A DNA stretch of 64,000 nt from Candidatus Woesearchaeota archaeon (GCA_016181305.1 JACOZN010000013.1:1-64000), one strand, 5' to 3'; shown: positions 14,860 through 60,306, numbered from the stretch's first letter. Program-made: numbers and translations. Notes: generated by a model from the sequence alone, not told the origin.

Positions 14860-14972
14860 TGCGGGGGAAGGGATTCGAACCCTCGCACCCACTTAGGGAC
14901 TAGCACCTCAAGCTAGCGCATGAAGTCTGAAAGCAAAAATGCCTTCAATTGACCAGGCTCTGCCACCCCCGC
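14860..14972 (-). tRNA. tRNA-Leu(GAG) with a 27-nt intron at position 21/22
   Basis: Acceptor GCGGGGG/CCCCCGC; anticodon arm CTAGC-TTGAGGT-GCTAG. Intron 14922-14948 forms a BHB (GGTC/GACT, bulges AAT and TCA, inner stem TGAAGGCA/TGCTTTCA). Confidence 0.93.
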
Positions 14973-15035
14973 GAGTTATACGAGCGGGTTCCCGAACTTT
15001 AGTGAGAATACCCGCATTCATGATTTTCAGCGGGA

Positions 15036-15833
15036 CTATTTGGCTTTCTTCAGCTCCTCCACAAACTCGTCAAGCTGCTCGTCAAGAATGTCAACTGCCT
15101 TGTTGACAATCTCCTTGCAGCTCAGCTGCCCGAATGATTCTATATAAAAAACAAAGTCCGTGTCGCTTGCAGCAACTTTGACGTTTTTATCTATCTCTGA
15201 AAAGTCCATTGACAAGTCGGATTCCAAAACCCTGTCTTTGTTGACTACAAGCTTCCTGTCTTTTATTTCAAATATATTGTTGTGGTCTACCTCTATTATG
15301 GCTTCCGGGTTTTTAACCTCGCCTGTTATTTCCACCACTGGCTTATACTTGTAATACGCATGGCACGGGCTCCATTTAATGTGGGATTTTCCTGTGCCCA
15401 AAACTGCAGTAGCTTCAAGTTCCAAAGTCTGGCCTTTCAGCAGCTTCACAATGGGCATGTCGCCATAAACGGGCTTTACAGCCGGGTCTTTGCTTTTCAG
15501 CTCGGATGCGTAGACTGTTCCGGAGCCTTTTGTGGCCCTTAGCACAAGCTTCAGCTGGCACCTGTTGCAGCCCTTCCCTTCGCATTTGCATTTTTCCGGA
15601 ATGTTGTATGACTTCAAGTCGGTTTTAAGCGGAATCAGCCCAAGCCTGTGGGCAATTATCTCGTCATAGAGTATTGAGTTGTTCTTTACGAATTCAACAT
15701 CTTCAATTGCCATTGCAGGGACTTCGTCTATCATAATCCTTCTCAAAGTGTTTGCGTAAACAGGATTTGAGTCTTTCAAAATAAAAGAAATTTTGCCCTG
15801 TTCTTTGCTGTTTTCCAAAACCCTGATTTCCAT
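15036..15833 (-). CDS. rpoD: RNA polymerase subunit D (Rpo3)
   Basis: ANTLRRIMIDEVP, DEIIAHRLGLIP and GTGKSHIKWSP. Confidence 0.97.
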   Translation of the reverse strand: MEIRVLENSKEQGKISFILKDSNPVYANTLRRIMIDEVPAMAIEDVEFVKNNSILYDEIIAHRLGLIPLKTDLKSYNIPEKCKCEGKGCNRCQLKLVLRATKGSGTVYASELKSKDPAVKPVYGDMPIVKLLKGQTLELEATAVLGTGKSHIKWSPCHAYYKYKPVVEITGEVKNPEAIIEVDHNNIFEIKDRKLVVNKDRVLESDLSMDFSEIDKNVKVAASDTDFVFYIESFGQLSCKEIVNKAVDILDEQLDEFVEELKKAK

Positions 15834-16232
15834 TTAAACCCTCCTTCCCCTTTTGCCCCCTTTTTTCCTGCACCCGTCATGCGGCAGAGGGGTAACCTCT
15901 TCTATAATGCCGATTTTCAGCCCCATCCTTGACAACGCCCTTATTGCAGCCTGAGCTCCGGGTCCGGGGCTTGTAGGCCCGTTATGCCCTCCTGGAGCCT
16001 TTATTTTTACATGTATTCCTGTGACTCCATTGTCCATGGCAGTCTCGGCAGCTTTTTTTGCAGCTATCATCGCAGCCGTGGGCGAACCTTCCATTCTGTC
16101 TGCTTTCACGACCATCCCGCCTGAGCCGACTGCCAATGTTTCAGTTCCTGTTATATCTGTGATATGGATAATTGTATTGTTGTATGATGCGTAAATGTGC
16201 GCTATCCCCCACCTTTGCTGCCTTTGTTCCAT
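15834..16232 (-). CDS. rps11: 30S ribosomal protein S11
   Basis: [21 protein letters not shown] and [10 protein letters not shown]. Confidence 0.98.
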
Positions 16233-16233
16233 A

Positions 16234-16761
16234 TTATTCCGCCTTTAGATTCCCGTGCTTTTGCTCCTTTGCCACAATCTGCAGGCTTATAGGGTGCACA
16301 AGCCTTATTTCCGGCTCTTCATTTATTGAGACCAAGTAGCTCGGGGTTGTTATTTTCCTGCTGCCGACTGCTATATGCTCATGCGTTATGAACTGCCTTG
16401 CCTGCAGCATTGTTGACGCCATCTGCTTCCTGCAAACCAGCGTCTGCAGCCTTCTCTCAAGCAAGTCCTTCAGCGTGAGGTTTAATACCTCCTCGATTTT
16501 CGAGTCTTTCTTTACCAATCCCATGGCATAAAGCCTCTGGAGCAGCTGGACTTTCTCCTTTTCGGACTGGGAGGTCCTTTCACCTATAATTGTTTTGGCC
16601 CTGTGGAGAAATTTCTTCAGCATCGAGTCCATCTTCCAGATTTCATATTTTCGCCTCAGGCCATACTGCTTTAATATTCCCCTTTCTGCCTCAATCCTTT
16701 CCTTCTGCCACGGGTGCCCTGGCTTTGAAAATTTCTTCCTTTGCCTTTTTGGATCTCCCAT
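16234..16761 (-). CDS. rps4: 30S ribosomal protein S4
   Basis: [18 protein letters not shown] and [10 protein letters not shown]. Confidence 0.98.
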
Positions 16762-16778
16762 TTTAAACCATTATACCA

Positions 16779-17264
16779 TTAGACTTTGCCGGCTTTTGCG
16801 CCTTCTTTTCTCTTGACTCCGAGAACCTTGCCCTTGTTTTTCCTGAAGTTTGATTTTGTCCTCTGGCCGCGTACAGGCAAGCCAAGCGAGTGCCTTACTC
16901 CTTTGTAGGACTTTATCTTCTTCATCATTTTTATGTCATTATCCTGCGTAAATGTGAGGCTTGTACCTGTCAAGTGCCTGTCTGTGTTGTCTTCAGGGTC
17001 CCTTTTCCTGTTGAAAAGCCATGCCGGAATCCTGAACTTTGAAGGCTCCTTTATGATGTCGTCTATCATGGCAGCTTCCTGCTCTGTCAAATACCCTGTC
17101 TTTCTGGTTTTTTCAATTTTGGCTGTATTGCATATGGCATTGGAGAACATGAAGCTTATGCCCTTTATCTTTGTCAGGGAATGATAGACTGACTTGTTTC
17201 CGTCTAGGTCTGTGTTTGCAATCCTTACAAAATATTTCAGTTCCTGCTTTGGTTGTTCTGTCAT
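16779..17264 (-). CDS. rps13: 30S ribosomal protein S13
   Basis: VRIANTDLDG and YKGVRHSLGLPVRGQRT. Confidence 0.98.
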   Translation of the reverse strand: MTEQPKQELKYFVRIANTDLDGNKSVYHSLTKIKGISFMFSNAICNTAKIEKTRKTGYLTEQEAAMIDDIIKEPSKFRIPAWLFNRKRDPEDNTDRHLTGTSLTFTQDNDIKMMKKIKSYKGVRHSLGLPVRGQRTKSNFRKNKGKVLGVKRKEGAKAGKV

Positions 17265-17382
17265 GATGGAAATAGCCGAGAATAAAGCGTTATGTGTTTA
17301 AAAACCCTAGAAACGCTCTTGTCGAACTCGGGCTGATGAAGAACGGGATATTATGGCTATTTAAAAAGGTTACTGATTTTTT

Positions 17383-17475
17383 GCCTTTTGCCTAGGCCTG
17401 GATTTTGGAATCCGAAGATTCTTGTAAGCAACACATGCCGAAGCATGCATCACCTCCCAGGATGCCCCAAAAAGC
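17383..17475 (-). ncRNA. candidate structured RNA or leader with two cUUCGg hairpins
   Basis: On the minus strand: CATGC-TTCG-GCATG and GAATC-TTCG-GATTC enclosed by CCTGG/CCAGG and GCTTTTTG/CAAAAGGC. A TTTATAAG box lies ~23 nt upstream. Confidence 0.5.
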
Positions 17476-17555
17476 AATAAAATGTAATATTCAATGTCTT
17501 ATAAATTTATTCAATGCAAAACCTTTAAAACCCTGCTTTTAATCCTAGTTTAGAT

Positions 17556-17741
17556 GACTGCGGTAGTTTAATGGCAGAATAAGCGGCTGTGGAGCAACCT
17601 TTTCTTTTGCAAAGAAAAGCTTGACCAAAAGAAAGGCACTCACGAGGTGGTGGGGTAAACCCCACTGGGATTAAGCATTACTTCATGATGGGAAGGTTGT
17701 GTAGAGCCCGCTTGGCGCGAGTTCGATTCTCGCCCGCGGTC
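17556..17741 (+). tRNA. tRNA-His(GTG) with encoded G-1 and a 114-nt intron at 37/38
   Basis: G-1 plus ACTGCGG/CCGCGGT and C73. Intron 17593-17706 forms a BHB (CTGT/GTAG, bulges GGA and AGC, stem GCAACCTT/AAGGTTGT). Confidence 0.93.
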
Positions 17742-17763
17742 CCTTTATCAAAAGGGAAAGCCA

Positions 17764-18150
17764 ATGCCAAAAACAGAAGACGAGTGGAAAAAGAAGCTGA
17801 CTCCAGAGCAATTTCATGTCCTGAGGGAGAAAGGCACAGAGCCGGCTTTCACAGGCAAATACTGCAAGAACAAGGGAAAGGGCACATATGTATGCGCCGG
17901 ATGCGGAGCTGAATTATTCTCGTCTGACACAAAGTTTGAGTCTGGCACGGGATGGCCAAGCTTTTACGCGCCAATGGCAAAAGACAGCATAGAAGAGAAG
18001 AAGGATTTTTCTCATGGAATGATGAGGGCAGAGGTGTTGTGCAAGAAATGCAAGGGGCATCTCGGGCACGTGTTTAATGACGGGCCAAAGCCAACAGGAT
18101 TGAGATACTGCATGAATTCTGCAGCATTGGGTTTCAGGAAGCCAAAATAA
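17764..18150 (+). CDS. msrB: peptide methionine (R)-sulfoxide reductase
   Basis: GTEPAFTG, Cxx[23 protein letters not shown] and RYCMNS. Confidence 0.97.
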
Positions 18151-18153
18151 CTG

Positions 18154-18669
18154 CTATTCCTTTGCGTAATATTCTATCTTCAGCACAAACCTGTAAACTA
18201 TATACGGCAGGACAAAGGAAACGGAATAAACCAAGGCAATAACTATCGAGTTATGCAGATTTGCCAGGCTTAATTTTGACATCAAGTTGTTTGACATATT
18301 TGATATGACAAAGGCATTTGCCAATGCAATTAACGGTATCAGGACGGCCAGAAGCAAATGATGCTTTTTCTCAAGGTGCTCTATGCTTCTTATTACAAGC
18401 TCGAACAACAAGCCAAAAACAATGCCCAAAACCATAAGCACAAGATAAAGAAATGCGCCGTTTAAGGCCACCAGTACAGGAATCAACGCAATTGAGATTG
18501 CGAAGTTTGCGGTGATTATAACGGCAAGAAGCACCCAGTAAATACGCTCTTCCAGAAACTTTATATCGTGCGGCTTGTTTTGCTTGGCGTCCCGTATAAT
18601 CCCGACTGCCCTGACAATCTCTTTTTTTCGCCACCCCTTTTTTTCAAGCCTTTTTACAAGGTTTTCCAT
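18154..18669 (-). CDS. hypothetical membrane protein (about 4 TM)
   Basis: 171-aa ORF with four hydrophobic segments, in an operon-like run. Confidence 0.75.
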   Translation of the reverse strand: MENLVKRLEKKGWRKKEIVRAVGIIRDAKQNKPHDIKFLEERIYWVLLAVIITANFAISIALIPVLVALNGAFLYLVLMVLGIVFGLLFELVIRSIEHLEKKHHLLLAVLIPLIALANAFVISNMSNNLMSKLSLANLHNSIVIALVYSVSFVLPYIVYRFVLKIEYYAKE

Positions 18670-18675
18670 GCTTTG

Positions 18676-19146
18676 CTAGTGCTCTTCCTTCTCCTCATTT
18701 ATTTCCTTTTTGACAAAAGCTATGAAGCTTCTTGTCTTCTCGTAGTATTCTTTCAAAATGTCTATGCTTACCTCGACAATCTCGCCTTTGTCGATTGTCG
18801 CAATCATTGTGACGTGCCTTCTGAACTCCTCCCTTTTTGTGTACTCTGCCTTGCTGAGCTTCCTGAGCCTCATATAAAAATTAATGTAGTCAATCAGCTC
18901 CGCATTGTCAGGAAAAGTTTTTCTGAGCAAGTCGCATCTCAGCCCCTGGTTTGCCGGAATGTTCGCCACAAGCTTTTTTTCCTTTGCGTACTTCAGCAGC
19001 GCCTCAATCCCAAAGCCGATGCAGTTTATCAGCCTGTCAATGACATGCTTTATGACATCTACTGTCCTGGTGTATTTCAGGCTTACCCAGAATAAATGGT
19101 CAACCCTTTTCAACTCCTGAACTGCCTCGTCAAATGACTCCTTCAT
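18676..19146 (-). CDS. conserved hypothetical protein
   Basis: 156-aa helical ORF, tightly packed with its neighbours. Confidence 0.75.
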   Translation of the reverse strand: MKESFDEAVQELKRVDHLFWVSLKYTRTVDVIKHVIDRLINCIGFGIEALLKYAKEKKLVANIPANQGLRCDLLRKTFPDNAELIDYINFYMRLRKLSKAEYTKREEFRRHVTMIATIDKGEIVEVSIDILKEYYEKTRSFIAFVKKEINEEKEEH

Positions 19147-19160
19147 AGAACATCCAAAAA

Positions 19161-19502
19161 TTATTTGTTTTGTATTTTTAATATCGCCTTTGCCAGATTG
19201 CCGTTATTGCTCTGCAAGGCCTCCAATGCCTCATTTTTTGTGCAGTTGGTTTGCTCCATAACTGTTGCCAAGTCGTCTTCGTCTATCTCCGGTGTTTCAT
19301 TCTTTTCAATTTCCGTTATATCGCCAACGACCTGAAATGTTTCCTGCCCCATCATGTTGACTTTGCTTACACGGGGGTTTTTAATGACAAAGTCCTTTTC
19401 GGCTGTTTTAATGATGACGAGCTCTGCATCGATTTCTTCCTGCCTGATGCCTAGCCTTTTCATCGCCTTCTGCATCTCCCTCGGGTTCATTCCAGGAAAC
19501 AT
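19161..19502 (-). CDS. nac: nascent polypeptide-associated complex protein
   Basis: MNPREMQKAMKRLGI N-terminus and a C-terminal UBA-like DDLATVMEQT..GNLAKAI. Confidence 0.95.
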   Translation of the reverse strand: MFPGMNPREMQKAMKRLGIRQEEIDAELVIIKTAEKDFVIKNPRVSKVNMMGQETFQVVGDITEIEKNETPEIDEDDLATVMEQTNCTKNEALEALQSNNGNLAKAILKIQNK

Positions 19503-19506
19503 TATC

Positions 19507-19683
19507 TCACCTTATTCCAAGCAGCCTGTTGCCGTAAGAGTAGAGAAGCAGCATTATGACAATGACGACAACACACAGCACTATTATGTGCCCGGGCTTG
19601 AACTTAATCTTGCTCTTGTACTCGTCAAAATATCGCACTAAGCCGCCCATTCCCGAGGGCATTGAAATCCTGTCTTGGGCCAT
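19507..19683 (-). CDS. secG: preprotein translocase Sec61beta/SecG
   Basis: Manual translation MAQDRISMPSGMGGLVRYFDEYKSKIKFKPGHIIVLCVVVIVIMLLL... (58 aa). Not in the ORF track. Confidence 0.92.
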   Translation of the reverse strand: MAQDRISMPSGMGGLVRYFDEYKSKIKFKPGHIIVLCVVVIVIMLLLYSYGNRLLGIR

Positions 19684-19721
19684 TTTTAATCACTACAAAT
19701 TCCAGTTTATAAATTAAAGCT

Positions 19722-20057
19722 GCAGGGCTTGAATAAGCCGCCTTTTGTCAGGCCCCGAGTGTGACATGAAAATCACGACAGCCTGCCTTAGCATTAAACT
19801 AAGCGTCTTTTAAGACTTGCACCAGCCAGGGCTCACCGTTTCACCCATGCTGCAAAAACGTCAGTTGGTTAGCTCGATTCCCTCGCAGGAACCTTCACAA
19901 ATTTCATCCTTAATTGCAGCGGTCTCGTTTCTGAGTGGTTGCCCCCTATTGCTAGGGCTCGCTTCCGCGAGTGGCTCTGATCAGTCAGCAAGCCTTTGAG
20001 GCTTGAGTGGGCGGACTTTCCTCAGTTGCAAAAACCGAAGCTAAGTACAAACCCTGC
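19722..20057 (-). ncRNA. rnpB: RNase P RNA
   Basis: GAGGAAAGTCCGCCC at 20023-20009, 3' ACAAAAGGCGGCTTAT, and terminal helix GCAGGGTT/AGCCCTGC. Confidence 0.93.
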
Positions 20058-20088
20058 TTATTATAGAATGAAAAGTGTATATATAAAA

Positions 20089-20367
20089 TTATCTGTTTTT
20101 TCTTTTCAGTATGGTTTCCTTTAAGCCCTTAATCTCGTCAAGCTGCTCAAGCAGAATGCCCTCCTTTATGTCCTCCCCTATTGCAAGCAGAATTATAAAT
20201 ATCACCATCAAAAGCCACAAAAAGACCGTCTGGAGGAAGCCCCAGCTTATTTTGTAGCCCTCTGCAATAAAAACCTTGTTTATGAAAAAATACCCGATGA
20301 TAAGGACAAGGAAGCCAACCACCAATAGCAGCTTCTCAAAAACACTCGTGCGCCTCTTTTTTTCCAT
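20089..20367 (-). CDS. small two-TM hypothetical protein
   Basis: 92 aa with two hydrophobic helices and a charged tail. Confidence 0.75.
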   Translation of the reverse strand: MEKKRRTSVFEKLLLVVGFLVLIIGYFFINKVFIAEGYKISWGFLQTVFLWLLMVIFIILLAIGEDIKEGILLEQLDEIKGLKETILKRKNR

Positions 20368-20391
20368 TGCGAGACAATTTGAATGTTATGT

Positions 20392-21516
20392 TTATATATT
20401 TTTCTTTTTGAACACCATGATTTTCAGCACCTGCTCGCCGCTCCAGACATCCTTTTCCCTGTGAACGGCAAAATCGCGCTTTTCCGCATGCTTTTTCACG
20501 AAATCAGGAATTCTGGACACTATTGCAACAGTCCCATTATTTTTCAGTATGTAATCGCACTGGTAAAAAAATTCGCCATACACCTTCTCCAGATTCGCAT
20601 TTTTCGATGTCGGGGGGTTGGTTATGATTCTGTCAACGCTTTCTTTACTGAACTTTATGTCAAGCCATTCGAGCTCAACCCTGCTGAAATTAATGTGCTT
20701 GTCCACGCCTGCAATTTTGGCATTTTTCCTTGAGTAATCAACATACTTGAACAGGTGGTCATATGAGTATATCTCCGCCTTTGACTTTTTTATGCTTTTG
20801 TCAACGCCTTCAAAGAATTCCTCAAAATCAACCCCAATCCTCAATCTCAAAAAGGCAAACTTGCCCTTCTTATAATAGTTGACGGGAAAGCCGGCTGCGT
20901 AAAAGGCAGCTTCTATCGCAACAACCCCGTCCCTTGAAAAAGGGTCGAGCGCCACATCATCCTTTCCAAAGCCGCTTTCCTTCACCAAGGCGTATGCAAT
21001 TGTGCCCCTCAAGGAATTGGAGTGGAGGAAAATCTTGTAAGCCCTTTTGTTAAGCTCGAACCCGGAAAAGTCAACCCCGAAATAGCATTTGTTATCAAAG
21101 ATATAAACCAAAAAAATGATGACATGGCTTTTCATGTCAAATTTTTTATTTTTGAATTTGCCCTGTATAAGCCCCGCAGCCTTCCCCTCCACGTTCACGC
21201 TGTTAAAATCATGCTTTCCCTCCCTTATGCACTCAACCCTGAATTTCTTGCTTTCACCAATCCACTTGTCAAATTTCAATTTATCTATAAATTTTCTAAA
21301 ATCTTCAAAAAAATCTTCAAACTCAAAGCTTCCTAGAAGATAAGCAATCCTGTCGGCAGACTGGCACTTGTAGCACAGCAGGCATAAGTCCTTAAAATCC
21401 CTGAAATCAAAGATAACACACCCGGTTTCCTGCTTGCAATTGGCATTTATAAGCCCTTTAATCTCTATAGCTGCCGTGCCTTCAATGCCTCTTGATGTTA
21501 TGGCAAGCCCTTTCAT
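20392..21516 (-). CDS. THUMP-domain RNA methyltransferase (Trm14/RlmL-like)
   Basis: THUMP region, ELNKRAYK, a degenerate DPFSRDG SAM motif and ITNPP. Confidence 0.85.
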   Translation of the reverse strand: MKGLAITSRGIEGTAAIEIKGLINANCKQETGCVIFDFRDFKDLCLLCYKCQSADRIAYLLGSFEFEDFFEDFRKFIDKLKFDKWIGESKKFRVECIREGKHDFNSVNVEGKAAGLIQGKFKNKKFDMKSHVIIFLVYIFDNKCYFGVDFSGFELNKRAYKIFLHSNSLRGTIAYALVKESGFGKDDVALDPFSRDGVVAIEAAFYAAGFPVNYYKKGKFAFLRLRIGVDFEEFFEGVDKSIKKSKAEIYSYDHLFKYVDYSRKNAKIAGVDKHINFSRVELEWLDIKFSKESVDRIITNPPTSKNANLEKVYGEFFYQCDYILKNNGTVAIVSRIPDFVKKHAEKRDFAVHREKDVWSGEQVLKIMVFKKKNI

Positions 21517-21553
21517 AGAATAAAAGCAATCAGCCTTGTTTAAAAATATTTGG

Positions 21554-21736
21554 CTATTTTTTAATCAATGATTTTTTATTTAGCCTTGCCTGCAATCCGT
21601 GGCTTGACTTTAAGTGCTTGAAGAACTCGATCTGCCTGAGCCTTTTCACTGCTTCCTTTTTTGTTTTGTAAGTGCCGAACTTCCTGCCTGTTGTCTCTGA
21701 CAGGACAACGTATTTGCCTTTAATCTTTTTTATCAT
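21554..21736 (-). CDS. small basic hypothetical protein
   Basis: 60 aa, YVVLSETTGRKFGTYKTKKEAVKRLRQIEFFKH; translationally coupled to the upstream gene. Confidence 0.7.
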   Translation of the reverse strand: MIKKIKGKYVVLSETTGRKFGTYKTKKEAVKRLRQIEFFKHLKSSHGLQARLNKKSLIKK

Positions 21737-23832
21737 TAACCCTTTTTCACATCCAGTATTATATAATCTTCTGAATCACAAGAAGTTGTTATACTGAAAT
21801 AACTGATCCCGCATCTGCTTCCATCGGCATTGCACCGTTCACTGCAGGATTTGCCGGCATAAGCAAGCCACGTATCAGTTGTTTTGCACGATGTCGGCTC
21901 TCCCTGAGTTTCAGCGTATCCGTCTGCACATGTCCATTCAGCGTTCCTGAAAGTCTGCTCCTGCGGGCTCTTTATGCAGGCTCCATTTCTGCACCCGCTG
22001 TAGCATCCGTAAGCGTAGGTGAAAATACTCCCATCCTCATCGCACAATGCCTCATTGAGATTAAATTTGTCAAGGCAGTAGTCCGTTACCGTTATTTTGT
22101 AATATAAGCCCAAACTCGATTCAGCGACTCCTTTTGCAAAAATATTCTTCCCGCCATCAGAATCCGTGCATACAGGCGGTTGCACGATGCTGAATGGAGC
22201 GTCGCTTGCGTCATAAGCACCATTCCCTTCCTGCCCTAAAAGATAAATTACAATATAAACATCATCGGCAGCCAGTTGGGGAACCCAGTCATAACTTCCG
22301 GTATTGGCAACATTTGCGGCAATCATATTTTCATATGCAGGAGTTACATCGTACCCCCCGCCCCTTAAGGCAATATTAACCATGCTGTTAGCTGGGAAAT
22401 TTGAAGTCTGCCATTTTACTGTTATTGTTTCACCCACTCTAAATGCCCCCCACCCATTCGGCGAAATAACTTGGATATACGGTTTTGGCTTATCAGCGCA
22501 TTTCTGTATTGGAGGCGGCGGCGGTTGTTTTCCACCTCCACCAGGCTTGCTTATAGTGTCAGCAAGCTGGCAGTAGTCATACTTTAAGCATTCTTCCACA
22601 CTTAATTCAGAGCAGCTTTTCAGGCAAGCTCCGTCTTTGCAGCCGTTGGGACAATCATATTTCTCTTTACCTGAAGTTCCGTCTTTATTGCAGGAATGCT
22701 CTGCTAAGACACATCCACCTTTGCCTTCGCACGGGCCATAACCCTGATCATAATTGTAGCAGAAATCAGTTGCTTCTTGTCCATTTGCAGATACTGTTCC
22801 TTTAACAAAATAATCCTTTCCGCCGTCAGAATCCGTGCATACATTAACTATTGAAGCGTCCAAATTCGCCAGCTTAAAGCCTGCAGGATCCCCATAATTC
22901 AGCCCGTTAAATGCTATCTTAAGCCCCAAGCCTTCAACGCTTGAGCCTTGGGAAATTGTATATTCCGATGATTGGGAAGTGCAGTAGTCCCCTCCCAGTG
23001 GGCGGCAGTAATTAGGGCTTGAAACCGTAATCTTTACAGAAGGCACAGGCGGTGGGGGCGGTTGCTTCCCACCTCCTCCAGCAGCTTGCGCATCATTTAT
23101 ACTTTCAAGCTTGATTTTCACATCTTGGTAGTTTGTTGTTCTGGCTGATTGCCCTTCTGAAAGTGAAAATGGTGAAGGCACGCTGATTTCTATTTCTTTT
23201 TGGCAGTCCTGCGGGCAGGTTCCTTTTGTGCATGGCGCTAGGCAAGGTGGATTTGCATTTGTGCAAGGCGGGCAATGGGAATCCTCTCCTTCCTCGCATA
23301 TGCTGTTGCCGCAAGTTGACTCCAAACATTTTCCGCCAATGCATGAATATTGCGGGCATGGCGCCCGAATGCACCTTATCTGCGGGCAATCAGAATCTGT
23401 TGAGCATTTTTTTACACATTTGCCGCCTGCATCCGGGAAGTCTCCTGCAAGCTGGCATGCCAATCTATCGCAGCATCCGATACCAGCAATGCCGCCGCAG
23501 AATTGATTCTCCTCCGCACATTTTGTTGGAGGTATTGGCGGAGGCACAGCCTTTTCCCCGCACTTGTCGGTGCAGGTATTGGGAATAATTCTGCTTGACT
23601 CGCCATCGTCGTCAATCTCGCAATAATGGGTGCACTCCTGTTGGTCCTCCCCTCCGCAGGCTCTTGTATATTTAGTATCGCCGTCATCATCATATTGTCT
23701 GGCATTGCATGCAGTAACAGCCTGAGAAGGCACTCCAAGCTGCCCGAGCTGGGCAATTGCCATGCCTGCCAAAAACACTAAAACCACTAAGACAAAGAAA
23801 AACCTGCTCTTAAAATCACCTTTTTTGAGCAT
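21736..23832 (-). CDS. cysteine-rich secreted/surface protein with repeated modules
   Basis: Signal peptide; many Cys clusters; CTDSDGGK twice; GGGGKQPPPPP twice; Ig-like IQVISPNG..GETITVKW module. Confidence 0.85.
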   Translation of the reverse strand: MLKKGDFKSRFFFVLVVLVFLAGMAIAQLGQLGVPSQAVTACNARQYDDDGDTKYTRACGGEDQQECTHYCEIDDDGESSRIIPNTCTDKCGEKAVPPPIPPTKCAEENQFCGGIAGIGCCDRLACQLAGDFPDAGGKCVKKCSTDSDCPQIRCIRAPCPQYSCIGGKCLESTCGNSICEEGEDSHCPPCTNANPPCLAPCTKGTCPQDCQKEIEISVPSPFSLSEGQSARTTNYQDVKIKLESINDAQAAGGGGKQPPPPPVPSVKITVSSPNYCRPLGGDYCTSQSSEYTISQGSSVEGLGLKIAFNGLNYGDPAGFKLANLDASIVNVCTDSDGGKDYFVKGTVSANGQEATDFCYNYDQGYGPCEGKGGCVLAEHSCNKDGTSGKEKYDCPNGCKDGACLKSCSELSVEECLKYDYCQLADTISKPGGGGKQPPPPPIQKCADKPKPYIQVISPNGWGAFRVGETITVKWQTSNFPANSMVNIALRGGGYDVTPAYENMIAANVANTGSYDWVPQLAADDVYIVIYLLGQEGNGAYDASDAPFSIVQPPVCTDSDGGKNIFAKGVAESSLGLYYKITVTDYCLDKFNLNEALCDEDGSIFTYAYGCYSGCRNGACIKSPQEQTFRNAEWTCADGYAETQGEPTSCKTTDTWLAYAGKSCSERCNADGSRCGISYFSITTSCDSEDYIILDVKKG

Positions 23833-23905
23833 AATAATCCATTTTTTTTCCCATATATAAATATTTTACTAAAGAGAATTTTGATTATCTATATATTTGT
23901 CAAAT

Positions 23906-24039
23906 CCTAAAAATGCATAATGCATTTTTTGGAACTTCAAAATTAAAATTTTGAAGTATTCTCTAAGAGAACTTTGAATGTCCTAAAAAATTGCAATGCA
24001 ATTTTTGGGAATGTCGAAAATGCTTTGCATTTTCGAACA
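23906..24039. repeat. cluster of short palindromes
   Basis: CCTAAAAATGCA-TAA-TGCATTTTTTGG; TTCAAAATT-AA-AATTTTGAA; TCCTAAAAAATTGCA-A-TGCAATTTTTGGGA; TCGAAAATGC-TTT-GCATTTTCGA. Confidence 0.8.
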
Positions 24040-24915: not shown

Positions 24916-24998
24916 GAGCGGAATTTGTCTGCTTAATTTAAATAACTTTCCACTATGGCACAGAAATATTTATATCAACATGCGGGTACTCAGCCCTG

Positions 24999-25379
24999 AT
25001 GAAGAGGATAATACTTGACACAAATTTTTTGCTTATACCCATTCAGTTCAGGGTAGACATATTTTCAGAGCTTGGCAGGATATGCAATTTCAACTACAAC
25101 CTATGCATTTTTGAGCAGACAATAAGCGAACTCAAAAATATCATTGAAAAGCAGTCAGGAAAAAGCAAAAAAGCCGCCCAATTTGCCCTGAAGCTTATAA
25201 GGCTTAAGAATATTGGAATAATCAAGTCAGGGCAAAAGGATACTGATTCATTGATTTTGGAAAATCTGGACAAAAACACAATAGTGGCGACACAGGACAT
25301 TGAGCTTAAAAGGCAGCTGCTTAAGAAAGGCACTTCTGTGGTTATACTAAGGAAGAAAAAATACCTCGAGCTTTACTGA
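24999..25379 (+). CDS. PIN-domain nuclease (Fcf1/Utp24-like)
   Basis: IILDTNFLL, DTD and VATQD; canonical position upstream of rpoE1. Confidence 0.92.
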   Translation: MKRIILDTNFLLIPIQFRVDIFSELGRICNFNYNLCIFEQTISELKNIIEKQSGKSKKAAQFALKLIRLKNIGIIKSGQKDTDSLILENLDKNTIVATQDIELKRQLLKKGTSVVILRKKKYLELY

Positions 25380-25454
25380 AAGAAAGCTTTATAAATGAGG
25401 CTCTTATCCTGGAAAGCATTGACTAGTTGAAGTCATTTAATAATTGAGGGCAAA

Positions 25455-26063: not shown

Positions 26064-26084
26064 TCAAAACAAGGTGTTTTAACC

Positions 26085-26270: not shown

Positions 26271-26275
26271 TCCCC

Positions 26276-27282: not shown

Positions 27283-27290
27283 AATAAAAA

Positions 27291-34973: not shown

Positions 34974-35075
34974 TGTCAAAAATCGCAATAATCCATTTTA
35001 AATAGTTGCGATTTTTGAGCATGCTCGGAAATTTTTGCAAATTTAATCAATAGTAAAAATTTCCGACATGTCAAA
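34974..35075. mobile_element. 95-bp double-palindrome insert flanked by a 7-bp direct repeat (MITE-like)
   Basis: TGTCAAA at 34974 and 35069; inverted repeats TCAAAAATCGCAA/TTGCGATTTTTGA and TCGGAAATTTTT/AAAAATTTCCGA. Confidence 0.55.
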
Positions 35076-35202: not shown

Positions 35203-35249
35203 TGGCCGAGTAGGCCAAAAAGCGCTGGAATAAGTTTAGCGTTCCGAAC
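35203..35249 (+). pseudogene. decayed duplicate of the 5' part of the adjacent tRNA-Leu
   Basis: TGGCCGAGTAGGCCAAAAGCGCTGGAATAAGTTTAGCGTTCCGAAC aligns with TGGCAGAGTCTGGCCCATTGCGCTGGACTTAAGATCCAGTTAGCGTTCCGAAC. Confidence 0.6.
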
Positions 35250-35291
35250 TTAATCAAAGCGGATTAGAAACTATATAAAACTTTCGGTAAA

Positions 35292-35433
35292 GCCGGGGTG
35301 GCAGAGTCTGGCCCATTGCGCTGGACTTAAGATCCAGTTAGCGTTCCGAACGCTTCACGGGTTCGAATGCTATAACGGAAATCCCGTAGTTGCTTGCGAG
35401 AACGCTCGCAAGCTCGCGTTCAACTCCCCAGCG
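35292..35433 (+). tRNA. tRNA-Leu(TAA)-like gene with a 14-nt T-loop intron and a 38-nt hairpin insert before the acceptor 3' strand (possibly non-functional)
   Basis: GCCGGGG.../CCCCAGC (C3xA70 mismatch, G73); anticodon arm CTGGA-CTTAAGA-TCCAG; intron 35368-35381; insert 35388-35425. Confidence 0.7.
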
Positions 35434-43264: not shown

Positions 43265-43409
43265 TAGCCCCGGGCAGATTCGAACTGCCGTCCATGCCTT
43301 TCGTTAGCAACGAAAGACCAGAAAATCTCTGATTTTCGCTGCCTCCAAAGGGCACGATGCTTGACCGCTACATTCCGCAGAATAAATTGCTTTATTCTTC
43401 CACGGGGCT
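43265..43409 (-). tRNA. tRNA-Gln(TTG) with two introns (27 nt at 10/11, 45 nt at 37/38)
   Basis: Acceptor AGCCCCG/CGGGGCT; introns 43373-43399 and 43300-43344, each with BHB-like pairing; spliced length 73 nt. Confidence 0.92.
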
Positions 43410-50384: not shown

Positions 50385-50492
50385 ATCCTAAAGAAAACCA
50401 TAACCATTTAAATATTTTTATAATATCCATCTTAATTAATTAGTCAAATATTTCAAAAAACTTAATAAACAATAAGGAATATCAAATACCCT

Positions 50493-51539: not shown

Positions 51540-52212
51540 TGTTTTTGATGTAATTTATTTTGAAGGCAGGAGCGTGATTAGCGAGGAGTTTGAGAAAAGG
51601 AGGAAGCTATTGGAGAGGACAATAAGGCAGGAGCCGAAAAAAATAGTGCTTTCAAAAATAAAAATTGTTTCTGAAAAGAAAGACGTGGAGAAATTTTTCA
51701 AGGATGCCGTCAATGCCGGCAACGAAGGCCTGATGTTCAAGTCGCTTAAGTCGCCTTACAAGCCAGGCGCAAGAGTCGGCTACATGATAAAGTTCAAGCA
51801 TATCATGGAAACTCTGGACCTGGTAATTGTAGGGGCGGAGTGGGGGGAAGGTAAAAGGTCAAAATGGCTCAGCAGCTACACAATCGCATGCATCGATGAC
51901 AATGGCAATTTTCTTGAGGTTGGAAAGGCAAGCACCGGATTGAAGGAAAAAGAGGAAGAAGGCCTGAGTTTCATGGAAATGACAAGATTGCTTAAGCCTT
52001 TGATAATTTCAGAGAAAGGAAAAGAAGTGAAAGTCAAGCCGAAAATTGTCATTGAAGTCGGCTATGAGGAAATACAAAAATCGCCGACATATGAAAGCGG
52101 GTTTGCTTTGAGGTTTCCAAGAGTAATCTCCCAAAGATTGGATAAAGGACCTCATGAGGCTTCTACACTGGATTATGTAAAGAAATTGTATGCGTCGCAG
52201 AAAAAGAGCTGA
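51538..52212 (+). CDS. lig: ATP-dependent DNA ligase, C-terminal fragment (shifted frame)
   Basis: Frame from 51538 reads NVFDVIYFEG (motif IIIa), EGLMFK, YKPGARVGYMIKFK and ALRFPR. Confidence 0.9.
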   Translation, partial: NVFDVIYFEGRSVISEEFEKRRKLLERTIRQEPKKIVLSKIKIVSEKKDVEKFFKDAVNAGNEGLMFKSLKSPYKPGARVGYMIKFKHIMETLDLVIVGAEWGEGKRSKWLSSYTIACIDDNGNFLEVGKASTGLKEKEEEGLSFMEMTRLLKPLIISEKGKEVKVKPKIVIEVGYEEIQKSPTYESGFALRFPRVISQRLDKGPHEASTLDYVKKLYASQKKS

Positions 52213-52282
52213 TTTTTCTATTATTACTATCTAGTACTCAAAACCGAAAGCTTTAAAAAGGCATTTTTACATTGTTTCTTAT

Positions 52283-53284
52283 ATGGAAAGCGGCGAAACT
52301 GCCGAAGCTGTTGAAGGCAAAACAGTGGAAGATAGTGATTCTGGGAGGCATGATTCTAGGCATTACGAGAAAGCTGAGCAAGAAGATTATCAATCAGAGC
52401 CTGTGCAGTCAAGATATTCAAAAAATGCCAGGGACTCTGAAGACGGCAGGGGAAGTGAAAAAAAATCACGTTCAAAAAAAGGCTTGGAGAAAATAGTCAA
52501 CAGCCTGAAAAAAGAGGCAGGAAACTCAGGAATTGATGAAACAGAATACGCATCTGCCCATTTTCATGAAAATATAAGCGAATTTTTAGAGGAAAGCGAT
52601 GATTCTGAAGAGGAGGAATTCAGCTATAAAGATGCGGTAGCTTTCATATACAACAAGGCAACAGGAGAATTTCTGCTTGAGGAGAAGCCAGGCACTTACT
52701 ATTGGAAATCAGAGAGGTGGAAGAAGGCTCTTATAGGCGGAAAGGGCAACAAAAAAGATTACAGCACTTATGCAACGCTCAAGAGAGAGCTGGGAGAGGA
52801 AATTCAGAAAGGCGCTGCAAAGGATACAATCATAAGGACTTTAGAGTCAAGCGGGACTTTAGTTGAGAGAATAACAGACCTTTGGAAAGGAAGGGAGATT
52901 ATAGATGACATATATAAAATACACATTGAGCCTGTCCAAGAATGGCATATAGCGAGGGAAGCAAAATCAACGCATGATGCAGGGCCTTTCCATGTGCTGA
53001 CATATGACCAAATCTTGAGCATGCCGAACAGCGCATTTGCATTCAACCACGGGCAGTTGCTCAAGAAATTCATTTTGGAGGAGTTTGTCCGCAATAAGCC
53101 CTCAAGCGCTTTGGCGCCTTACGCAAGCTATGCTCTGCCGCTTTTCAGCACCAGCCCAAGCCATTTAAAGGCTATTCAGGATTATTCTAATCCCTCATTG
53201 GCTTTAAGAAGCAATCCATTAATCCCAAATCAGCAGAATTCATTCCAAAAATCGAACTATTCACAACCTTTATATACACAATAA
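52283..53284 (+). CDS. protein with an acidic disordered N-terminus and a NUDIX-like domain
   Basis: FIYN...EFLLEEK and LIGGKGNKKDYSTYATLKRELGEEI (degenerate Nudix box). Confidence 0.65.
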   Translation: MESGETAEAVEGKTVEDSDSGRHDSRHYEKAEQEDYQSEPVQSRYSKNARDSEDGRGSEKKSRSKKGLEKIVNSLKKEAGNSGIDETEYASAHFHENISEFLEESDDSEEEEFSYKDAVAFIYNKATGEFLLEEKPGTYYWKSERWKKALIGGKGNKKDYSTYATLKRELGEEIQKGAAKDTIIRTLESSGTLVERITDLWKGREIIDDIYKIHIEPVQEWHIAREAKSTHDAGPFHVLTYDQILSMPNSAFAFNHGQLLKKFILEEFVRNKPSSALAPYASYALPLFSTSPSHLKAIQDYSNPSLALRSNPLIPNQQNSFQKSNYSQPLYTQ

Positions 53285-53300
53285 AAACACGAACAATAAA

Positions 53301-56412
<3,112 letters not shown>

Positions 56413-56413
56413 A

Positions 56414-56809
56414 ATGGCAACACTAAAAACTTTGAAAAGAGGAACTGCTGGTGAACCTATAAAGAGCGAAGAACTTAGTGATAAGCCTAGATCATATGGT
56501 GCAAAGAAAATAAATTTAAACGCAGAAAACATCAAAACGAAAGAAGAATTATTAAGAGAATTGGCAAAAATTACGGAAGGATATGTGGGTGCTGACATAG
56601 AATTAGTTTGCAGGGAAGCGGCAATTCTTGCTTTAAGAGAAAATATACGGGCTAGGGAAATCCTGCCCAAACACTTTGAGCAAGCACTTGAAAAAGTGAG
56701 ACCCAGTGTCACTAAGGAAGTTCAGCAAACTTATGAAGAGTTACGCGAAACCCTTAGTGCAGCAAGAGCGAAACAAATGCTTGATGAAAAGCCAAGCTAT
56801 ATGGGTTAA
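56414..56809 (+). CDS. cdc48: CDC48 C-terminal fragment (D2 helical lid)
   Basis: ELAKITEGYVGADIELVCREAA and FEQALEKVRPSV; starts 1 nt after the upstream stop. Confidence 0.88.
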   Translation: MATLKTLKRGTAGEPIKSEELSDKPRSYGAKKINLNAENIKTKEELLRELAKITEGYVGADIELVCREAAILALRENIRAREILPKHFEQALEKVRPSVTKEVQQTYEELRETLSAARAKQMLDEKPSYMG

Positions 56810-56866
56810 AATTTTGCAACTTTTCAAATAAAAACCTTTAAATAAGCTTATCCTAACTTTTTATTC

Positions 56867-58159
56867 ATGATACCTGAGTTTGGAGACACGATTAAGGTAC
56901 ACACTAAAGAACAAGTCTATGAAGGAATACTTCTGCCGCGCCCGGAGATTTTTGACGAGAATTACACAGTCATAAAGCTGGACAACGGCTACAACATAGG
57001 GGTTGAAAACAAAAGAATTGAGAAAATCGAGGTTGTGTCAAAATACCAGAAGAAAAAAGAGGAAAGGCACAAGATAGAGCATAAAAAGGGACTGCCTAAT
57101 GTGCCGGTTTTGTCCTTTGGAGGCACTATTTCTTCGAGAGTCGACTACAAGACAGGCGGAGTTTATGCCGACTACACCGCAGAGGATTTTGTTGAGATGC
57201 TGCCTGAGCTGACAAATGTTGCAAACTTAAAAGCAGAGAAAGTAATGAGCATAATGAGCGAAGATATGGCTCCTGAGGACTGGCAGGCAATGGCAAGAAG
57301 AATTGCAAAAGAGCTTAATGAAGACAATGCAGGGGTTGTTGTGACGCAAGGCACAGACACTTTGCATTTTTCAACGGCAGCGATGTCTTTTTTTCTGAAG
57401 AATCTGAACAAGCCTGTTGTTTTTACCGCAGCGCAGAGAAGCATTGACAGGGGAAGTTCCGACGCTCTCTCCAATTTATTGTGTGCTGTGCACGCCGCAT
57501 CAAAATTTGACGGGGCTGCCGTTGTAACCTGCATGCACGGCACAAGCGACGATAACTACTGCATTTTAAACAGGGGCACAAAGGTGAGGAAGATGCACAC
57601 AAGCAGAAGGGATGCTTTCCGCCCGATAAATGAGCTGCCCCTTGCAAAGGTTTTTGAAGACGGAAAAATCGAGGTTTTGAATAAAAATTACAATAAGAGA
57701 AATAATGAAAAAGTGCATGTTGATGACAAGTTCGAGCATAAAACCGGATTGGTTTATGTTTATCCTGGGATGGATCCAGAGATTCTTGACTATTATCCAG
57801 AGAAAAAATACAGGGGAATTGTGATTGCTGCAACAGCGCTCGGGCATGTTGCTACAATAAATCCAAAATATTCCTTAATTAAAAAATTAAAGGAATTAAT
57901 TGACAATAATGTTGCTGTGGTGATTTCAACGCAAACAATTTATGGAAGAGTCCATCCTTATGTCTATACAAATCTGAGAAAACTATCGGTAGAATTAAAC
58001 TGCATCTTTGCGGAGGACATGCTTCCAGAAACAGCTTATGTAAAGCTAGGCTGGGTGCTTGGGCATACGCACAAAATTGACGAAGTCAGGGAGATGATGC
58101 TCACTAATAGTGCTGGGGAGATGAGCGAGAGAAGTAGTGAAAAGGCATTTTTGTACTGA
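56867..58159 (+). CDS. gatD: glutamyl-tRNA(Gln) amidotransferase subunit D
   Basis: KLDNGYNIG, GGTISSRVDY.TG, TQGTDT, AQRSIDRGSSD and KMHTSRRDAF. Confidence 0.97.
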   Translation: MIPEFGDTIKVHTKEQVYEGILLPRPEIFDENYTVIKLDNGYNIGVENKRIEKIEVVSKYQKKKEERHKIEHKKGLPNVPVLSFGGTISSRVDYKTGGVYADYTAEDFVEMLPELTNVANLKAEKVMSIMSEDMAPEDWQAMARRIAKELNEDNAGVVVTQGTDTLHFSTAAMSFFLKNLNKPVVFTAAQRSIDRGSSDALSNLLCAVHAASKFDGAAVVTCMHGTSDDNYCILNRGTKVRKMHTSRRDAFRPINELPLAKVFEDGKIEVLNKNYNKRNNEKVHVDDKFEHKTGLVYVYPGMDPEILDYYPEKKYRGIVIAATALGHVATINPKYSLIKKLKELIDNNVAVVISTQTIYGRVHPYVYTNLRKLSVELNCIFAEDMLPETAYVKLGWVLGHTHKIDEVREMMLTNSAGEMSERSSEKAFLY

Positions 58160-58398
58160 TGACCCCTATTCAAGATTTATTAAACAAAATCAAGTGGGAC
58201 AAAAGGGAAAATACAAGCGATTACACGCTTTTTTATTTCGATAGAATTTTAAACAAGATGATTTCTGTTCCCTATAATAATATTAAAAGGCTGGAAGGCA
58301 GCTTTATGGTTTTAAATAATGAGGATGAAACAAACATTCCGCTGCACAGGATTAAAAAGGTAGCTAAAAAAGATGCGATAATATGGGAAAGGAAATGA
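58159..58398 (+). CDS. DUF504 / MJ1316-like putative RNA-binding protein
   Basis: LLNKIKWD, YFDRI, IPLHRI and IWER. Confidence 0.85.
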   Translation: MTPIQDLLNKIKWDKRENTSDYTLFYFDRILNKMISVPYNNIKRLEGSFMVLNNEDETNIPLHRIKKVAKKDAIIWERK

Positions 58399-59801
58399 AC
58401 TATCAGGAATTGGGATTCAGATGCGGGCTTGAAATCCACCAGCAATTGGAAGGAAAAAAGCTGTTCTGCAACTGCCCTACTCTGAACTCTGACAAAGAGC
58501 CTGATGTAAGGGTTGAGAGAAGATTAAGGGCTGTTGCAGGCGAGACAGGCGACATTGACATTGCAGCAGAGTTTGAGATGTCAAAGAAAAAGAAATTTCT
58601 TTACGAGAGCAATTCTGAAGACACCTGCCTTGTTGAATATGATGAGGAGCCGCCGCATGAATTGAACAAGAAGGCTTTGGAAACTGCATTGAAAATTGCC
58701 TTGCTTCTCAACGCAAAAATTGTTGACGAAATCCAAGTAATGCGCAAAACCGTTGTTGACGGCAGCAACGTATCCGGATTCCAGAGGACTGCATTGGTTG
58801 CAATGGACGGCTTTGTGGAAAGCTCTCTTGGCATGGTTAAGATTCCAACAATCTGCCTGGAAGAGGAAGCTGCCCAGAAATTAGGGGAAGGCAATGATTT
58901 TGTAAAATACAAGCTTGACAGGCTTGGAATTCCACTGATAGAAATTGCAACAGACTCGGGCATAAAAAGCCCTGAGCATGCAAAGGAGGTTGCAAGCCAT
59001 ATCGGAATGGTGTTGAGAAGCGTTGAAAATGTCAAAAGGGGCATTGGCACGATAAGGCAGGATGTTAACATTTCAATTGAAGGCGGGGCAAGAACTGAAA
59101 TAAAGGGATTTCAGGACCTGAGGAGCATTCCAAAAGTGATTGAGTATGAAGTTAAAAGACAAATTAATGGGATAAACCAAGGAAAAACATTAAACAAGGA
59201 AGTTAGAAAAGCAGAGCCAGACTTCACAACGTCGTTTTTGAGGCCATTGCCTGGCGCTGCAAGATTGTACCCCGAGACAGATGTTTTGCCGGTTAAATCA
59301 GAGAAGAATCACATAGATGAATTGAGGAAAAAGCTTCCAAGATTGCTGACGGAAAAAGTCGATGAATTCGCAAAAAAATACAACATAACAAAAGAAATGG
59401 CAAAGGAATTGGTTGACAATGCTGATTTTGAATACCTAAAGCAAAAATTCAAGCATAAAGACACATGGGTTATAGTCCGAACTTTGATAAACACGCCAAA
59501 GGAAATAAAATCAAAACTAAGCGCCGAGGATTTTGAAGAGATAATCTCCTATTATTACGACGGAAAAATAGCGAAGGAAGCAATAACAGACTTGCTGGAA
59601 AAAAAGGCTTTAGGAGAAAAAGTAAAAATATCAGAGTTTGAAGCAGTTTCAGAAGAGCAGCTTGAAAAGGAAATAAAGCAGATAATAAAGGAAAAGCCCG
59701 GCTTGAGCCAAAGCGCCTACATGGGGCTGGCAATGTCAAAGTACAGGGGGAGGGTTGACGGCAGGAAAGTGATGGAAGTGGTGAAGAAATTTGTTAAGTA
59801 A
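58395..59801 (+). CDS. gatE: glutamyl-tRNA(Gln) amidotransferase subunit E, short form
   Basis: GLEIHQQL, MRKTVVDGSNVSGFQRT, RGIGTIRQDVN and RPLPGAARLYPETD; ~470 aa. Start approximate (58383 in the ORF track). Confidence 0.95.
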   Translation: MNYQELGFRCGLEIHQQLEGKKLFCNCPTLNSDKEPDVRVERRLRAVAGETGDIDIAAEFEMSKKKKFLYESNSEDTCLVEYDEEPPHELNKKALETALKIALLLNAKIVDEIQVMRKTVVDGSNVSGFQRTALVAMDGFVESSLGMVKIPTICLEEEAAQKLGEGNDFVKYKLDRLGIPLIEIATDSGIKSPEHAKEVASHIGMVLRSVENVKRGIGTIRQDVNISIEGGARTEIKGFQDLRSIPKVIEYEVKRQINGINQGKTLNKEVRKAEPDFTTSFLRPLPGAARLYPETDVLPVKSEKNHIDELRKKLPRLLTEKVDEFAKKYNITKEMAKELVDNADFEYLKQKFKHKDTWVIVRTLINTPKEIKSKLSAEDFEEIISYYYDGKIAKEAITDLLEKKALGEKVKISEFEAVSEEQLEKEIKQIIKEKPGLSQSAYMGLAMSKYRGRVDGRKVMEVVKKFVK

Positions 59802-59843
59802 CATTTATATTAAAATGCCTTTTTCTTTGCTTTGGTGATTTTA

Positions 59844-60086
59844 ATGGCATTTGGGAAATTTGACAAGAGCTTGGACAAGGAAATATTCTCGGAAACAATC
59901 CAGTTTGAGACATCAAGTATAACTGTTGGGATTTTTTCATATAATGACGGCGAGAAAAAGATGCAGGTTTCAAGGGAAAATATGTCTCAAGACGGAGAAT
60001 GGAGCTTCGCAAAGCTAGGCAGGATGTTCAAGTATGAGGCCGAGAAAGTGATTCCAGTAATGGAAAAGGCTTTGGAGCATATGTGA
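59844..60086 (+). CDS. small PC4/YdbC-like putative ssDNA-binding protein
   Basis: TVGIFSYNDGEKKMQVSRE..WSFAKLGRM pattern. Confidence 0.6.
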   Translation: MAFGKFDKSLDKEIFSETIQFETSSITVGIFSYNDGEKKMQVSRENMSQDGEWSFAKLGRMFKYEAEKVIPVMEKALEHM

Positions 60087-60197
60087 CTCCTTATTTCTTT
60101 CCTGCTCTCTCGCTTCGGATAACTTTTTTCATGCTATGCTAGATAGCACTACTCCAAGGGTTCCTCATAAGTACGAGGCAGCCGCTATAAGCGAAAA

Positions 60198-60306
60198 CGC
60201 GCCGGGGAAGATTCGAACTCCCGGCCTAAAGGTTAGGAACCTTTCGCTCTATTTGCACGAAGCAAAGCGAGTGCTCGCTAGCCTCTCCAAGCTGAGCTAC
60301 CGGCGC
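60198..60306 (-). tRNA. tRNA-Arg(CCT) with a 34-nt D-loop intron at 19/20
   Basis: Acceptor GCGCCGG/CCGGCGC; AAAGG-TTCCTAA-CCTTT; intron 60253-60286 with a GAGGC/GCTTC stem; the spliced D-loop reads AGCTTGGATA. Confidence 0.9.

Follow-up and report, generated by a model that had tools for sequence, protein, structure and literature searches.

Palindromic modules common to bulge-helix-bulge introns and intergenic DNA in a genus of Woesearchaeota

The window analyzed here is a 64,000-nucleotide (nt) stretch of Candidatus Woesearchaeota archaeon DNA (GCA_016181305.1 JACOZN010000013.1:1-64000), the first 64 kb of contig C19 in a 1.07-Mb, 78%-complete metagenome bin, and it carries five tRNA genes between positions 14,860 and 60,306 that we compared, along with the palindromes of the spacers, across a genus sample of 43 congeneric genomes, all of them metagenome bins. 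An earlier note on this DNA had described all five tRNA genes as interrupted and their intron hairpins as resembling intergenic palindromes. Dissection by hand together with a scanner for the bulge-helix-bulge (BHB) motif, taken as two 3-nt bulges on opposite strands with a 4-bp helix between them and the cuts inside the bulges, bore out the interruption of all five genes and revealed six BHB introns plus one insert without a BHB. The central helix has all four pairs in four introns and three of four in the other two (the 37/38 intron of tRNA-Gln and the intron of tRNA-Arg), with correct bulges in each. Four of the six introns lie at non-canonical sites, in agreement with that note, although the numbering within the D loop (19/20 versus 20/21, and 21/22) is ambiguous by one base owing to repeated letters. 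The hairpins quoted in the earlier note are present at 17599-17619, 43321-43337 and 24014-24036.

On the minus strand, tRNA-Leu(GAG) at 14860-14972 (Rfam, 45.7 bits) takes up a full cloverleaf in its spliced form, and its D loop holds a 27-nt intron (14922-14948, minus strand) with an 8-bp stem, a 4-nt loop and a 4/4 central helix; this intron matched no module family, and BLAST against its own genome gave results at chance level. The gene for tRNA-His(GUG), with an encoded G-1, occupies 17556-17742 on the plus strand (Rfam, 40.5 bits), and its 114-nt canonical intron at 37/38 (17593-17706, plus strand) forms a perfect hBHBh' structure with an 11-bp inner and a 7-bp outer helix. The minus-strand gene for tRNA-Gln(UUG) at 43265-43409 yields a full cloverleaf after removal of two introns, one of 27 nt at 10/11 (43373-43399, minus strand; central helix 4/4) and one of 45 nt at the canonical 37/38 site (43300-43344, minus strand; 3/4), and orthologues with and without each intron exist. 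Also on the minus strand, tRNA-Arg(CCU) at 60198-60306 is interrupted by a 34-nt D-loop intron (60253-60286, minus strand) whose 3/4 central helix includes one U.U pair. The fifth gene, tRNA-Leu(UAA) at 35292-35433 on the plus strand, possesses a 14-nt T-loop intron at 59/60 (35368-35381, plus strand; 4/4) and, between the T stem and the acceptor strand (65/66), a 38-nt GC-hairpin module without a BHB (35388-35425, plus strand). Intron-free alleles back the junctions of the Arg D-loop intron (orthologues L014 and L015), the His canonical intron (L120) and both Gln introns, and the junctions of the Leu-GAG intron and of the Leu-UAA T-loop intron were placed from the fold alone. Modeled in this way, the five are ordinary archaeal tRNA genes with BHB introns predicted to be spliced by protein, and their unusual part is the content of the inserts. 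ARAGORN in default mode found no tRNA in the window and in intron mode recovered some of the genes, several of them mis-typed, and Rfam placed two of the five above threshold and three below. A practical consequence is that most such interrupted tRNA genes escape standard tRNA finders.

Comparison across the genus revealed families of small modules within these inserts, the first of which forms the 5' end of the His intron as a CAACCTTTT-hairpin-AAAAGCTTGACCAAAAG module (17595-17631, plus strand) that encloses the CTTTTCTTT-TGC-AAAGAAAAG hairpin of the earlier note. In the 43 genomes the pattern CAACCTTTT-N(3-20)-AAAAGC is found in about 190 copies versus 3 for the reversed control pattern, the intron part of the locus matches many loci in relatives by itself, and the hairpin arms of the unit co-vary between copies. 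The ends of the unit are CAACCTTTT/AAAAGGTTG inverted repeats, and composites open with CAACCT(T/Y)TT and close with its complement in either orientation, which allows a composite to provide the inner BHB helix whichever way it points. Within the window's own genome, intron copies of the unit occur in tRNA-Thr(CGU) (canonical) and tRNA-Lys(CUU) (D loop, reversed), and intergenic copies occur directly behind tRNA-Arg(UCU) on contig C16 and in a spacer at about C19:77.5 kb. The CAACC module spans tRNA types and positions, with copies in canonical introns (His, Thr and Pro), D-loop introns (Lys among others) and T-loop introns (Gln and His among others), and its direction with respect to the host tRNA is forward for His, Thr and Pro and reversed for Lys and at loci L075 and L081.

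Reading by eye 31 genuine sampled contexts of the CAACCTTTT unit (one further regex match, L074, was judged spurious and left out), we found 8 within introns of tRNA genes (at canonical, D-loop and T-loop sites, pointing either way), 1 at the start of a 16S rRNA intron, 7 between repeated tRNA-Gln 3' ends and the remainder in spacers, often a few bases ahead of a start codon; about half of the 31 are in or beside tRNA or rRNA genes. In one relative (L071; G061:C7, ~58925) the 16S rRNA gene breaks off after GGATTAGATA, where an intron of some 130 nt opens with the CAACCTTTT module that also begins the tRNA-His intron. At six loci (L078, L080, L083, L088, L090 and L091) an entire tRNA-Gln precedes one or two extra copies of its last 15-17 nt, each set apart by a hairpin composite. 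Module units at these arrays measure 60-130 bp and contain neither an open reading frame (ORF) nor an integrase of their own, and the 3'-end repeats are the expected leftover of repeated integration at the T loop.

The second family consists of CGAAAAT hairpins, for which the pattern CGAAAATS-N(3-5)-SATTTTCG gave about 281 sites in the genus versus 1 control site. The intergenic palindrome at 24016-24034 singled out in the earlier note is a member of this family. The GAAAATC-AGA-GATTTTC hairpin within the Gln canonical intron (43321-43337, minus strand) matches at 18 of 19 positions the family copies CGAAAATC-AGA-GATTTTCG, which lie outside tRNA genes in G027 and G016, and it is kept in six Gln introns that represent both isoacceptors. 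In G027 an intergenic composite carries both this Gln-intron hairpin and the 38-nt module of tRNA-Leu(UAA).

That 38-nt module has the layout AGTTG...CAACT around a GCGAG/CTCGC stem, and in relatives it is present in at least 80 copies of 87-100% identity, some of them identical to the window copy, in many contexts and often beside modules of the first two families; BLAST found no other copy in the window's own genome. Only one of four central pairs can form around it in tRNA-Leu(UAA), and it was excluded from the BHB introns for this reason. Treating it as a BHB intron gave no solution, strict or relaxed, that yields a cloverleaf. The gene around it bears a C3xA70 mismatch (its G73 is normal for the lineage), and its orthologues have the T-loop intron, are missing the 65/66 insert and possess a fully paired acceptor stem, so that the window copy is probably decaying. 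A second tRNA-Leu(UAA) gene on contig C1 is a candidate called by ARAGORN only. Upstream of the window gene we read two A-run/T-run hairpins with long loops directly from the sequence (34974-35075), and at about 35203-35260, roughly 40 nt upstream, lies a decayed partial tRNA-Leu(UAA) copy comprising the anticodon-stem and variable-arm portion. At another locus (L154; G013:C14, ~7210) the 38-nt module sits within the 5' part of an ORF that continues into a GTPase P-loop (NIGMVGHVDHGKTT), where it may be an mRNA intron of the BHB kind or else an insertion that does no harm.

Direct alignment connects introns with spacers as well. The canonical His intron of G016 holds a 59-nt two-hairpin unit that is 81% identical to window positions 23898-23962 (alignment score 51 versus a maximum of 30 in 200 shuffles of the pair) and 83-85% identical to two further spacers of the window's genome, and the T-loop His intron of G019 aligns with the C16 spacer of the window's genome at 94% identity over 77 columns (score 121 versus a shuffle maximum of 24). 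The earlier note had named a likeness no greater than that of shuffled hairpins as fatal to its proposal, and the alignments therefore go against that outcome. When the seven inserts were compared by BLAST with this genome by itself, the matches were chance-level or borderline only, and the module families became visible only across the genus. The proposal that intron hairpins and intergenic palindromes belong to the same families thus holds, by sequence homology and not by a common A/T style, for three of the seven inserts (the His intron, the Gln 37/38 intron and the 38-nt Leu-UAA insert) and finds no support above chance for the other four.

The putative spacers themselves are enriched in perfect hairpins relative to dinucleotide-preserving shuffles (2.3-fold for stems of at least 7 bp, 3.2-fold for 8 bp and 4.8-fold for at least 9 bp), with a 3-base loop being commonest and the excess being polar, A-run first and T-run second. 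Each kb contains on average 0.51 of them in convergent spacers, 0.75 in tandem and 1.01 in divergent ones, and we ruled out a role as terminators because they are least dense in convergent spacers. Many belong to repeated multi-hairpin composites, such as the intergenic composite at 23906-24039, in which four A-run/T-run hairpins include the 24016-24034 palindrome and whose second half recurs on C14 and C22. Rfam recognized no known RNA family in ten hairpin-rich regions. In genome G000, the segment C4:2487-2740 (L061), behind a stop codon, is GC-rich and structured-looking, with a hairpin pair CAAAAATC / CGAAAATGC and two copies of a GTTCTCAGTC...GATTGAGCG motif, and it too had no Rfam match.

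Filled and empty sites can be compared directly at a junction element at 61502-61557, which consists of a 17-bp inverted repeat without hairpins and represents the empty form; its near-identical copy on C20 holds a 56-nt two-hairpin unit and represents the filled form (the right part of this comparison was read by eye, as MAFFT misaligned the right half). Modules also enter one another: compared with the window's His intron, those of G002 and G016 differ by hairpins inserted inside the module, and nested insertions are seen at L108 and L111. We considered whether the 41-nt insert in the G002 His intron is a nested mini-intron and rejected this, as reading by eye gave no BHB at either possible boundary.

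Orthologues of the window genes revealed turnover of introns within the genus. Among those of tRNA-Arg(CCU), some are intron-free (L014, L015), others share the ends of the D-loop intron around different interiors, and some have a canonical intron that replaces the D-loop intron or is additional to it. Gln orthologues combine introns at 10/11, in the D loop, at 37/38 and at 59/60 in various ways, with two unrelated types at 37/38 that once occur in tandem. His orthologues precede the same downstream gene, and they carry at 37/38 either no intron, a hairpin intron of 17-29 nt or the 114-nt form; their T loop is either uninterrupted or holds a short hairpin or a 90-130-nt composite. For Arg, Gln and His, alleles that lack introns thus coexist in the genus with short and with module-filled ones, and the intron positions are therefore neither ancient nor fixed, which disposes of the second outcome that had been named as fatal to the proposal. 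Two further observations concern the 45-nt canonical Gln intron, which is near-identical in tRNA-Gln(UUG) and tRNA-Gln(CUG) despite differing exons (L033, L039, L031-L035) and in G008 stands in tandem behind a second, unrelated canonical intron.

Spliceability is illustrated by five T-loop composite introns of relatives, each with a 5-bp outer helix and a 4/4 central helix that co-varies with the host T loop, TTCG pairing with CGAA and TTCA with TGAA at 59/60. The statement in the earlier note that inserts survive when they form a BHB is supported by the contrast between perfect-BHB T-loop inserts, which sit in otherwise intact genes, and the no-BHB insert of tRNA-Leu(UAA), which sits in a gene with an acceptor mismatch and a putative second copy elsewhere in the genome. 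As a candidate enzyme, the catalytic domain of the splicing endonuclease has one PF01974 match in the genome (97.8 bits, in a 200-amino-acid (aa) open frame on contig C21). In DPANN archaea, alpha4-type endonucleases with an extra loop have been linked to heavy disruption of tRNA genes, and it was noted that the tRNA sets of such archaea could not be predicted in full (PMC5829648).

We consider it probable, if far from certain, that the hairpin elements are small, non-autonomous and inserted as DNA, and that BHB splicing makes these insertions harmless and sometimes turns them into introns. The occurrence of modules in both orientations, the one insert without a BHB, the filled and empty sites and the nesting all favor insertion at the DNA level. 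The genus would carry very small, gene-less modules (the CAACCTTTT/AAAAGGTTG unit, the CGAAAAT A-run/T-run hairpins and the 38-nt GC hairpin) that would multiply as DNA, often one within another, and build up where extra DNA is tolerated, namely in spacers, at cassette junctions, in tRNA 3' flanks and in tRNA and rRNA introns. A module inside an existing intron would cost nothing because it would be excised along with that intron. A module in a tRNA loop could become a new intron where four of its adjacent bases pair with the upstream exon and its inverted ends form the BHB inner helix, a route that appears clearest at 59/60 of the T loop; where no BHB is possible, as at 65/66 of tRNA-Leu(UAA), the gene would be damaged and decay. 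The common families, the homology between introns and spacers, the presence or absence of modules in relatives and the BHB geometry are observed, and it is from these that we infer DNA-level insertion, an enzyme that moves the modules and the origin of whole introns by this route. The earlier note had suggested a mobile process seeding both spacers and tRNA genes with the BHB acting as a filter for survival, and the shared families and the turnover of introns lend this proposal partial support, but the mechanism of insertion and the direction of transfer (from intergenic DNA to intron or the reverse) can be put forward only conditionally. In a stronger form that we regard as possible and hold more tentatively, these would be archaeal 'introners', gene-less hairpins with inverted ends that enter conserved tRNA and rRNA loops and are each born spliceable, their ends and four flanking bases together making the BHB.

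The main rival to this account places the introns first: the modules would have arisen in tRNA and rRNA introns, and the spacer copies would be what is left of tRNA halves with introns, moved from their place as integrative elements or recombination remade the 3' ends of tRNA genes. It would accommodate the modules that, in relatives, lie between repeats of the final 15-17 nt of tRNA-Gln (sometimes three in a row), the C16 copy directly behind tRNA-Arg(UCU), the T-loop-like left flanks on several intergenic copies and the partial tRNA-Leu twin upstream of the window gene, and it agrees with a published model that ties intron gain and tRNA fragments to mobile-element integration (PMC3293823). 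Many copies, however, stand just upstream of protein genes or in repeats at cassette junctions, with no trace of a tRNA, the junction compared in its filled and empty forms likewise lacks tRNA surroundings, and modules are inserted into one another, all of which leaves an origin in introns rather unlikely. Spread at the RNA level, in which circularized introns would reverse-splice into BHB-like sites of other RNAs and then be copied into DNA, could produce similar introns at the same T-loop position of different tRNAs, each with a matching central helix, but is very unlikely given that modules also occur reversed, at a site with no BHB and in junction repeats that are apparently untranscribed.

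Two other explanations do without movement. Modules might be functional signals (protein sites, promoter or 5'-leader elements, or folding aids) selected independently in introns and spacers, as might be suspected from the Gln intron hairpin being identical in six genomes and both isoacceptors, from copies that often end a few bases ahead of a start codon and from stems that co-vary as they would under structural selection. Such signals would not be expected in both orientations within transcripts, nor to differ in presence at orthologous sites, nor to damage a tRNA gene as the Leu-UAA copy does, and the hairpins are not enriched in convergent spacers as terminators would be, making this explanation distinctly unlikely. 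The least probable of all is chance resemblance, whereby AT-rich DNA is rich in short hairpins, every BHB intron has a stem and the likeness is merely one of style; a 4-bp A/T run with a 3-nt loop is indeed common in the intergenic DNA of this genome, and for four of the inserts no match exceeds those of shuffled controls. The pattern counts (about 190 versus 3 and about 281 versus 1), the alignments of 58-77 columns at 81-94% identity that score far above shuffles and the 38-nt copies identical to that of the window speak against it, and for three inserts chance is refuted.

Several points weigh against the insertion of mobile modules that we favor. For four inserts of the seven, namely both 27-nt mini-introns, the T-loop intron of 14 nt and the intron of tRNA-Arg, matches to the families do not rise above chance, many copies of the modules sit nested within an older intron of which they are only a part, and some modules are strongly conserved, loops included, for which function could be the explanation in place of recent movement. 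Excision of the introns in the cell is a prediction, and in these comparisons gain and loss look alike at any single site. The enrichment figures refer to sampled loci only, and repeats in metagenome bins are prone to assembly error. No target-site duplication is evident at the insertions compared, neither a transposase partner nor an excision product was seen, and a Y1 transposase gave no PF01797 match in the 78%-complete genome. The genome does encode three tyrosine recombinases, without a link to the modules.

Parts of this picture are already in print, including multi-intron tRNA genes, intron families across tRNAs and intron gain via mobile-element integration. In Thermoproteales, multi-intron tRNA genes and families of introns 'transposed' across tRNAs have been described (Sugahara 2008; Fujishima 2010, reviewed in PMC4090602), and our genes are similar in having several introns per gene, non-canonical sites, related introns across tRNA types and positions and the BHB as a filter for persistence. 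They differ in belonging to Woesearchaeota (DPANN) and in that the sequences that introns have in common occur beyond tRNA genes too and take the form of discrete, nested hairpin modules that run in both orientations. The mechanism of such transposition has been called unknown, with no donor of this kind mentioned (PMC4090602, a 2014 review; 2026 Asgard preprint). In Caldiarchaeum, intron gain and tRNA fragments were attributed to integration of a mobile element (Sugahara 2012, PMC3293823), which our data resemble in tying tRNA disruption to mobile DNA and in the duplicated tRNA fragments beside the element; that element, however, is 1.8 kb long and encodes a recombinase, whereas the units here are 20-130 bp, gene-less, multi-copy across the genus and themselves form the intron.

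Outside archaea, the closest parallel may be introner elements, transposons akin to miniature inverted-repeat transposable elements (MITEs) that create eukaryotic spliceosomal introns (reviewed in PMC11282704). The modules are likewise small non-autonomous repeats with inverted ends that would become introns through host splicing, and they have the MITE-like traits of terminal inverted repeats, many dispersed copies and filled and empty sites, but a protein endonuclease and the BHB take the place of the spliceosome, the hosts are tRNA and rRNA genes, and we found no target duplication or transposase. Repetitive extragenic palindromes and bacterial interspersed mosaic elements (REP/BIME), together with IS200/IS605 palindromes, are similar in being short imperfect palindromes in intergenic mosaic clusters with co-varying stems. 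No Y1 (RAYT/TnpA) gene was found here, in contrast to REP/BIME, and our hairpins are not concentrated at gene 3' ends and lie inside introns. A trait in common with integrative elements of tRNA 3' ends is the tRNA-Gln 3' end repeated 2-3 times around modules. As at integron attC or Xer-dif cassette junctions, hairpins occur at junctions bounded by inverted repeats (window 61502-61557; C2, C14, C20 and C22), but because these junctions exist with and without hairpins, the hairpins are additions and not the site itself. We found no published description of small palindromic modules common to BHB introns and intergenic DNA.

Beyond the tRNA genes, Rfam identified archaeal RNase P and signal recognition particle RNAs in the window, and at 19757-19790 the RNase P RNA has about 34 extra nt near its 3' end that are missing from the family model and could be another small intron. 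The closest matches of the window's proteins are from groundwater Candidatus Woesearchaeota bins. A 902-aa protein encoded at 10097-12805 on the minus strand has Woesearchaeota relatives of at most 72% identity, and after DPANN bins its listed matches are bacterial (Tepidanaerobacter, Clostridia) at about 50%, which suggests a bacterial-type gene common to DPANN archaea.

This genus bears on how protein-spliced introns arrive in archaeal tRNA genes, as its 43 genomes bring together intron-free, short and module-filled alleles, donor-like repeats outside tRNA genes and one failed insertion. The shared modules point to a likely source of protein-spliced introns, and the question can be put to a direct test through comparative genomics, metatranscriptomics and an endonuclease assay. 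If the introner reading is true, it would account for the burst of non-canonical introns seen among DPANN archaea and would supply the donor sequences that have been sought but not found in recent work on Asgard tRNA introns.

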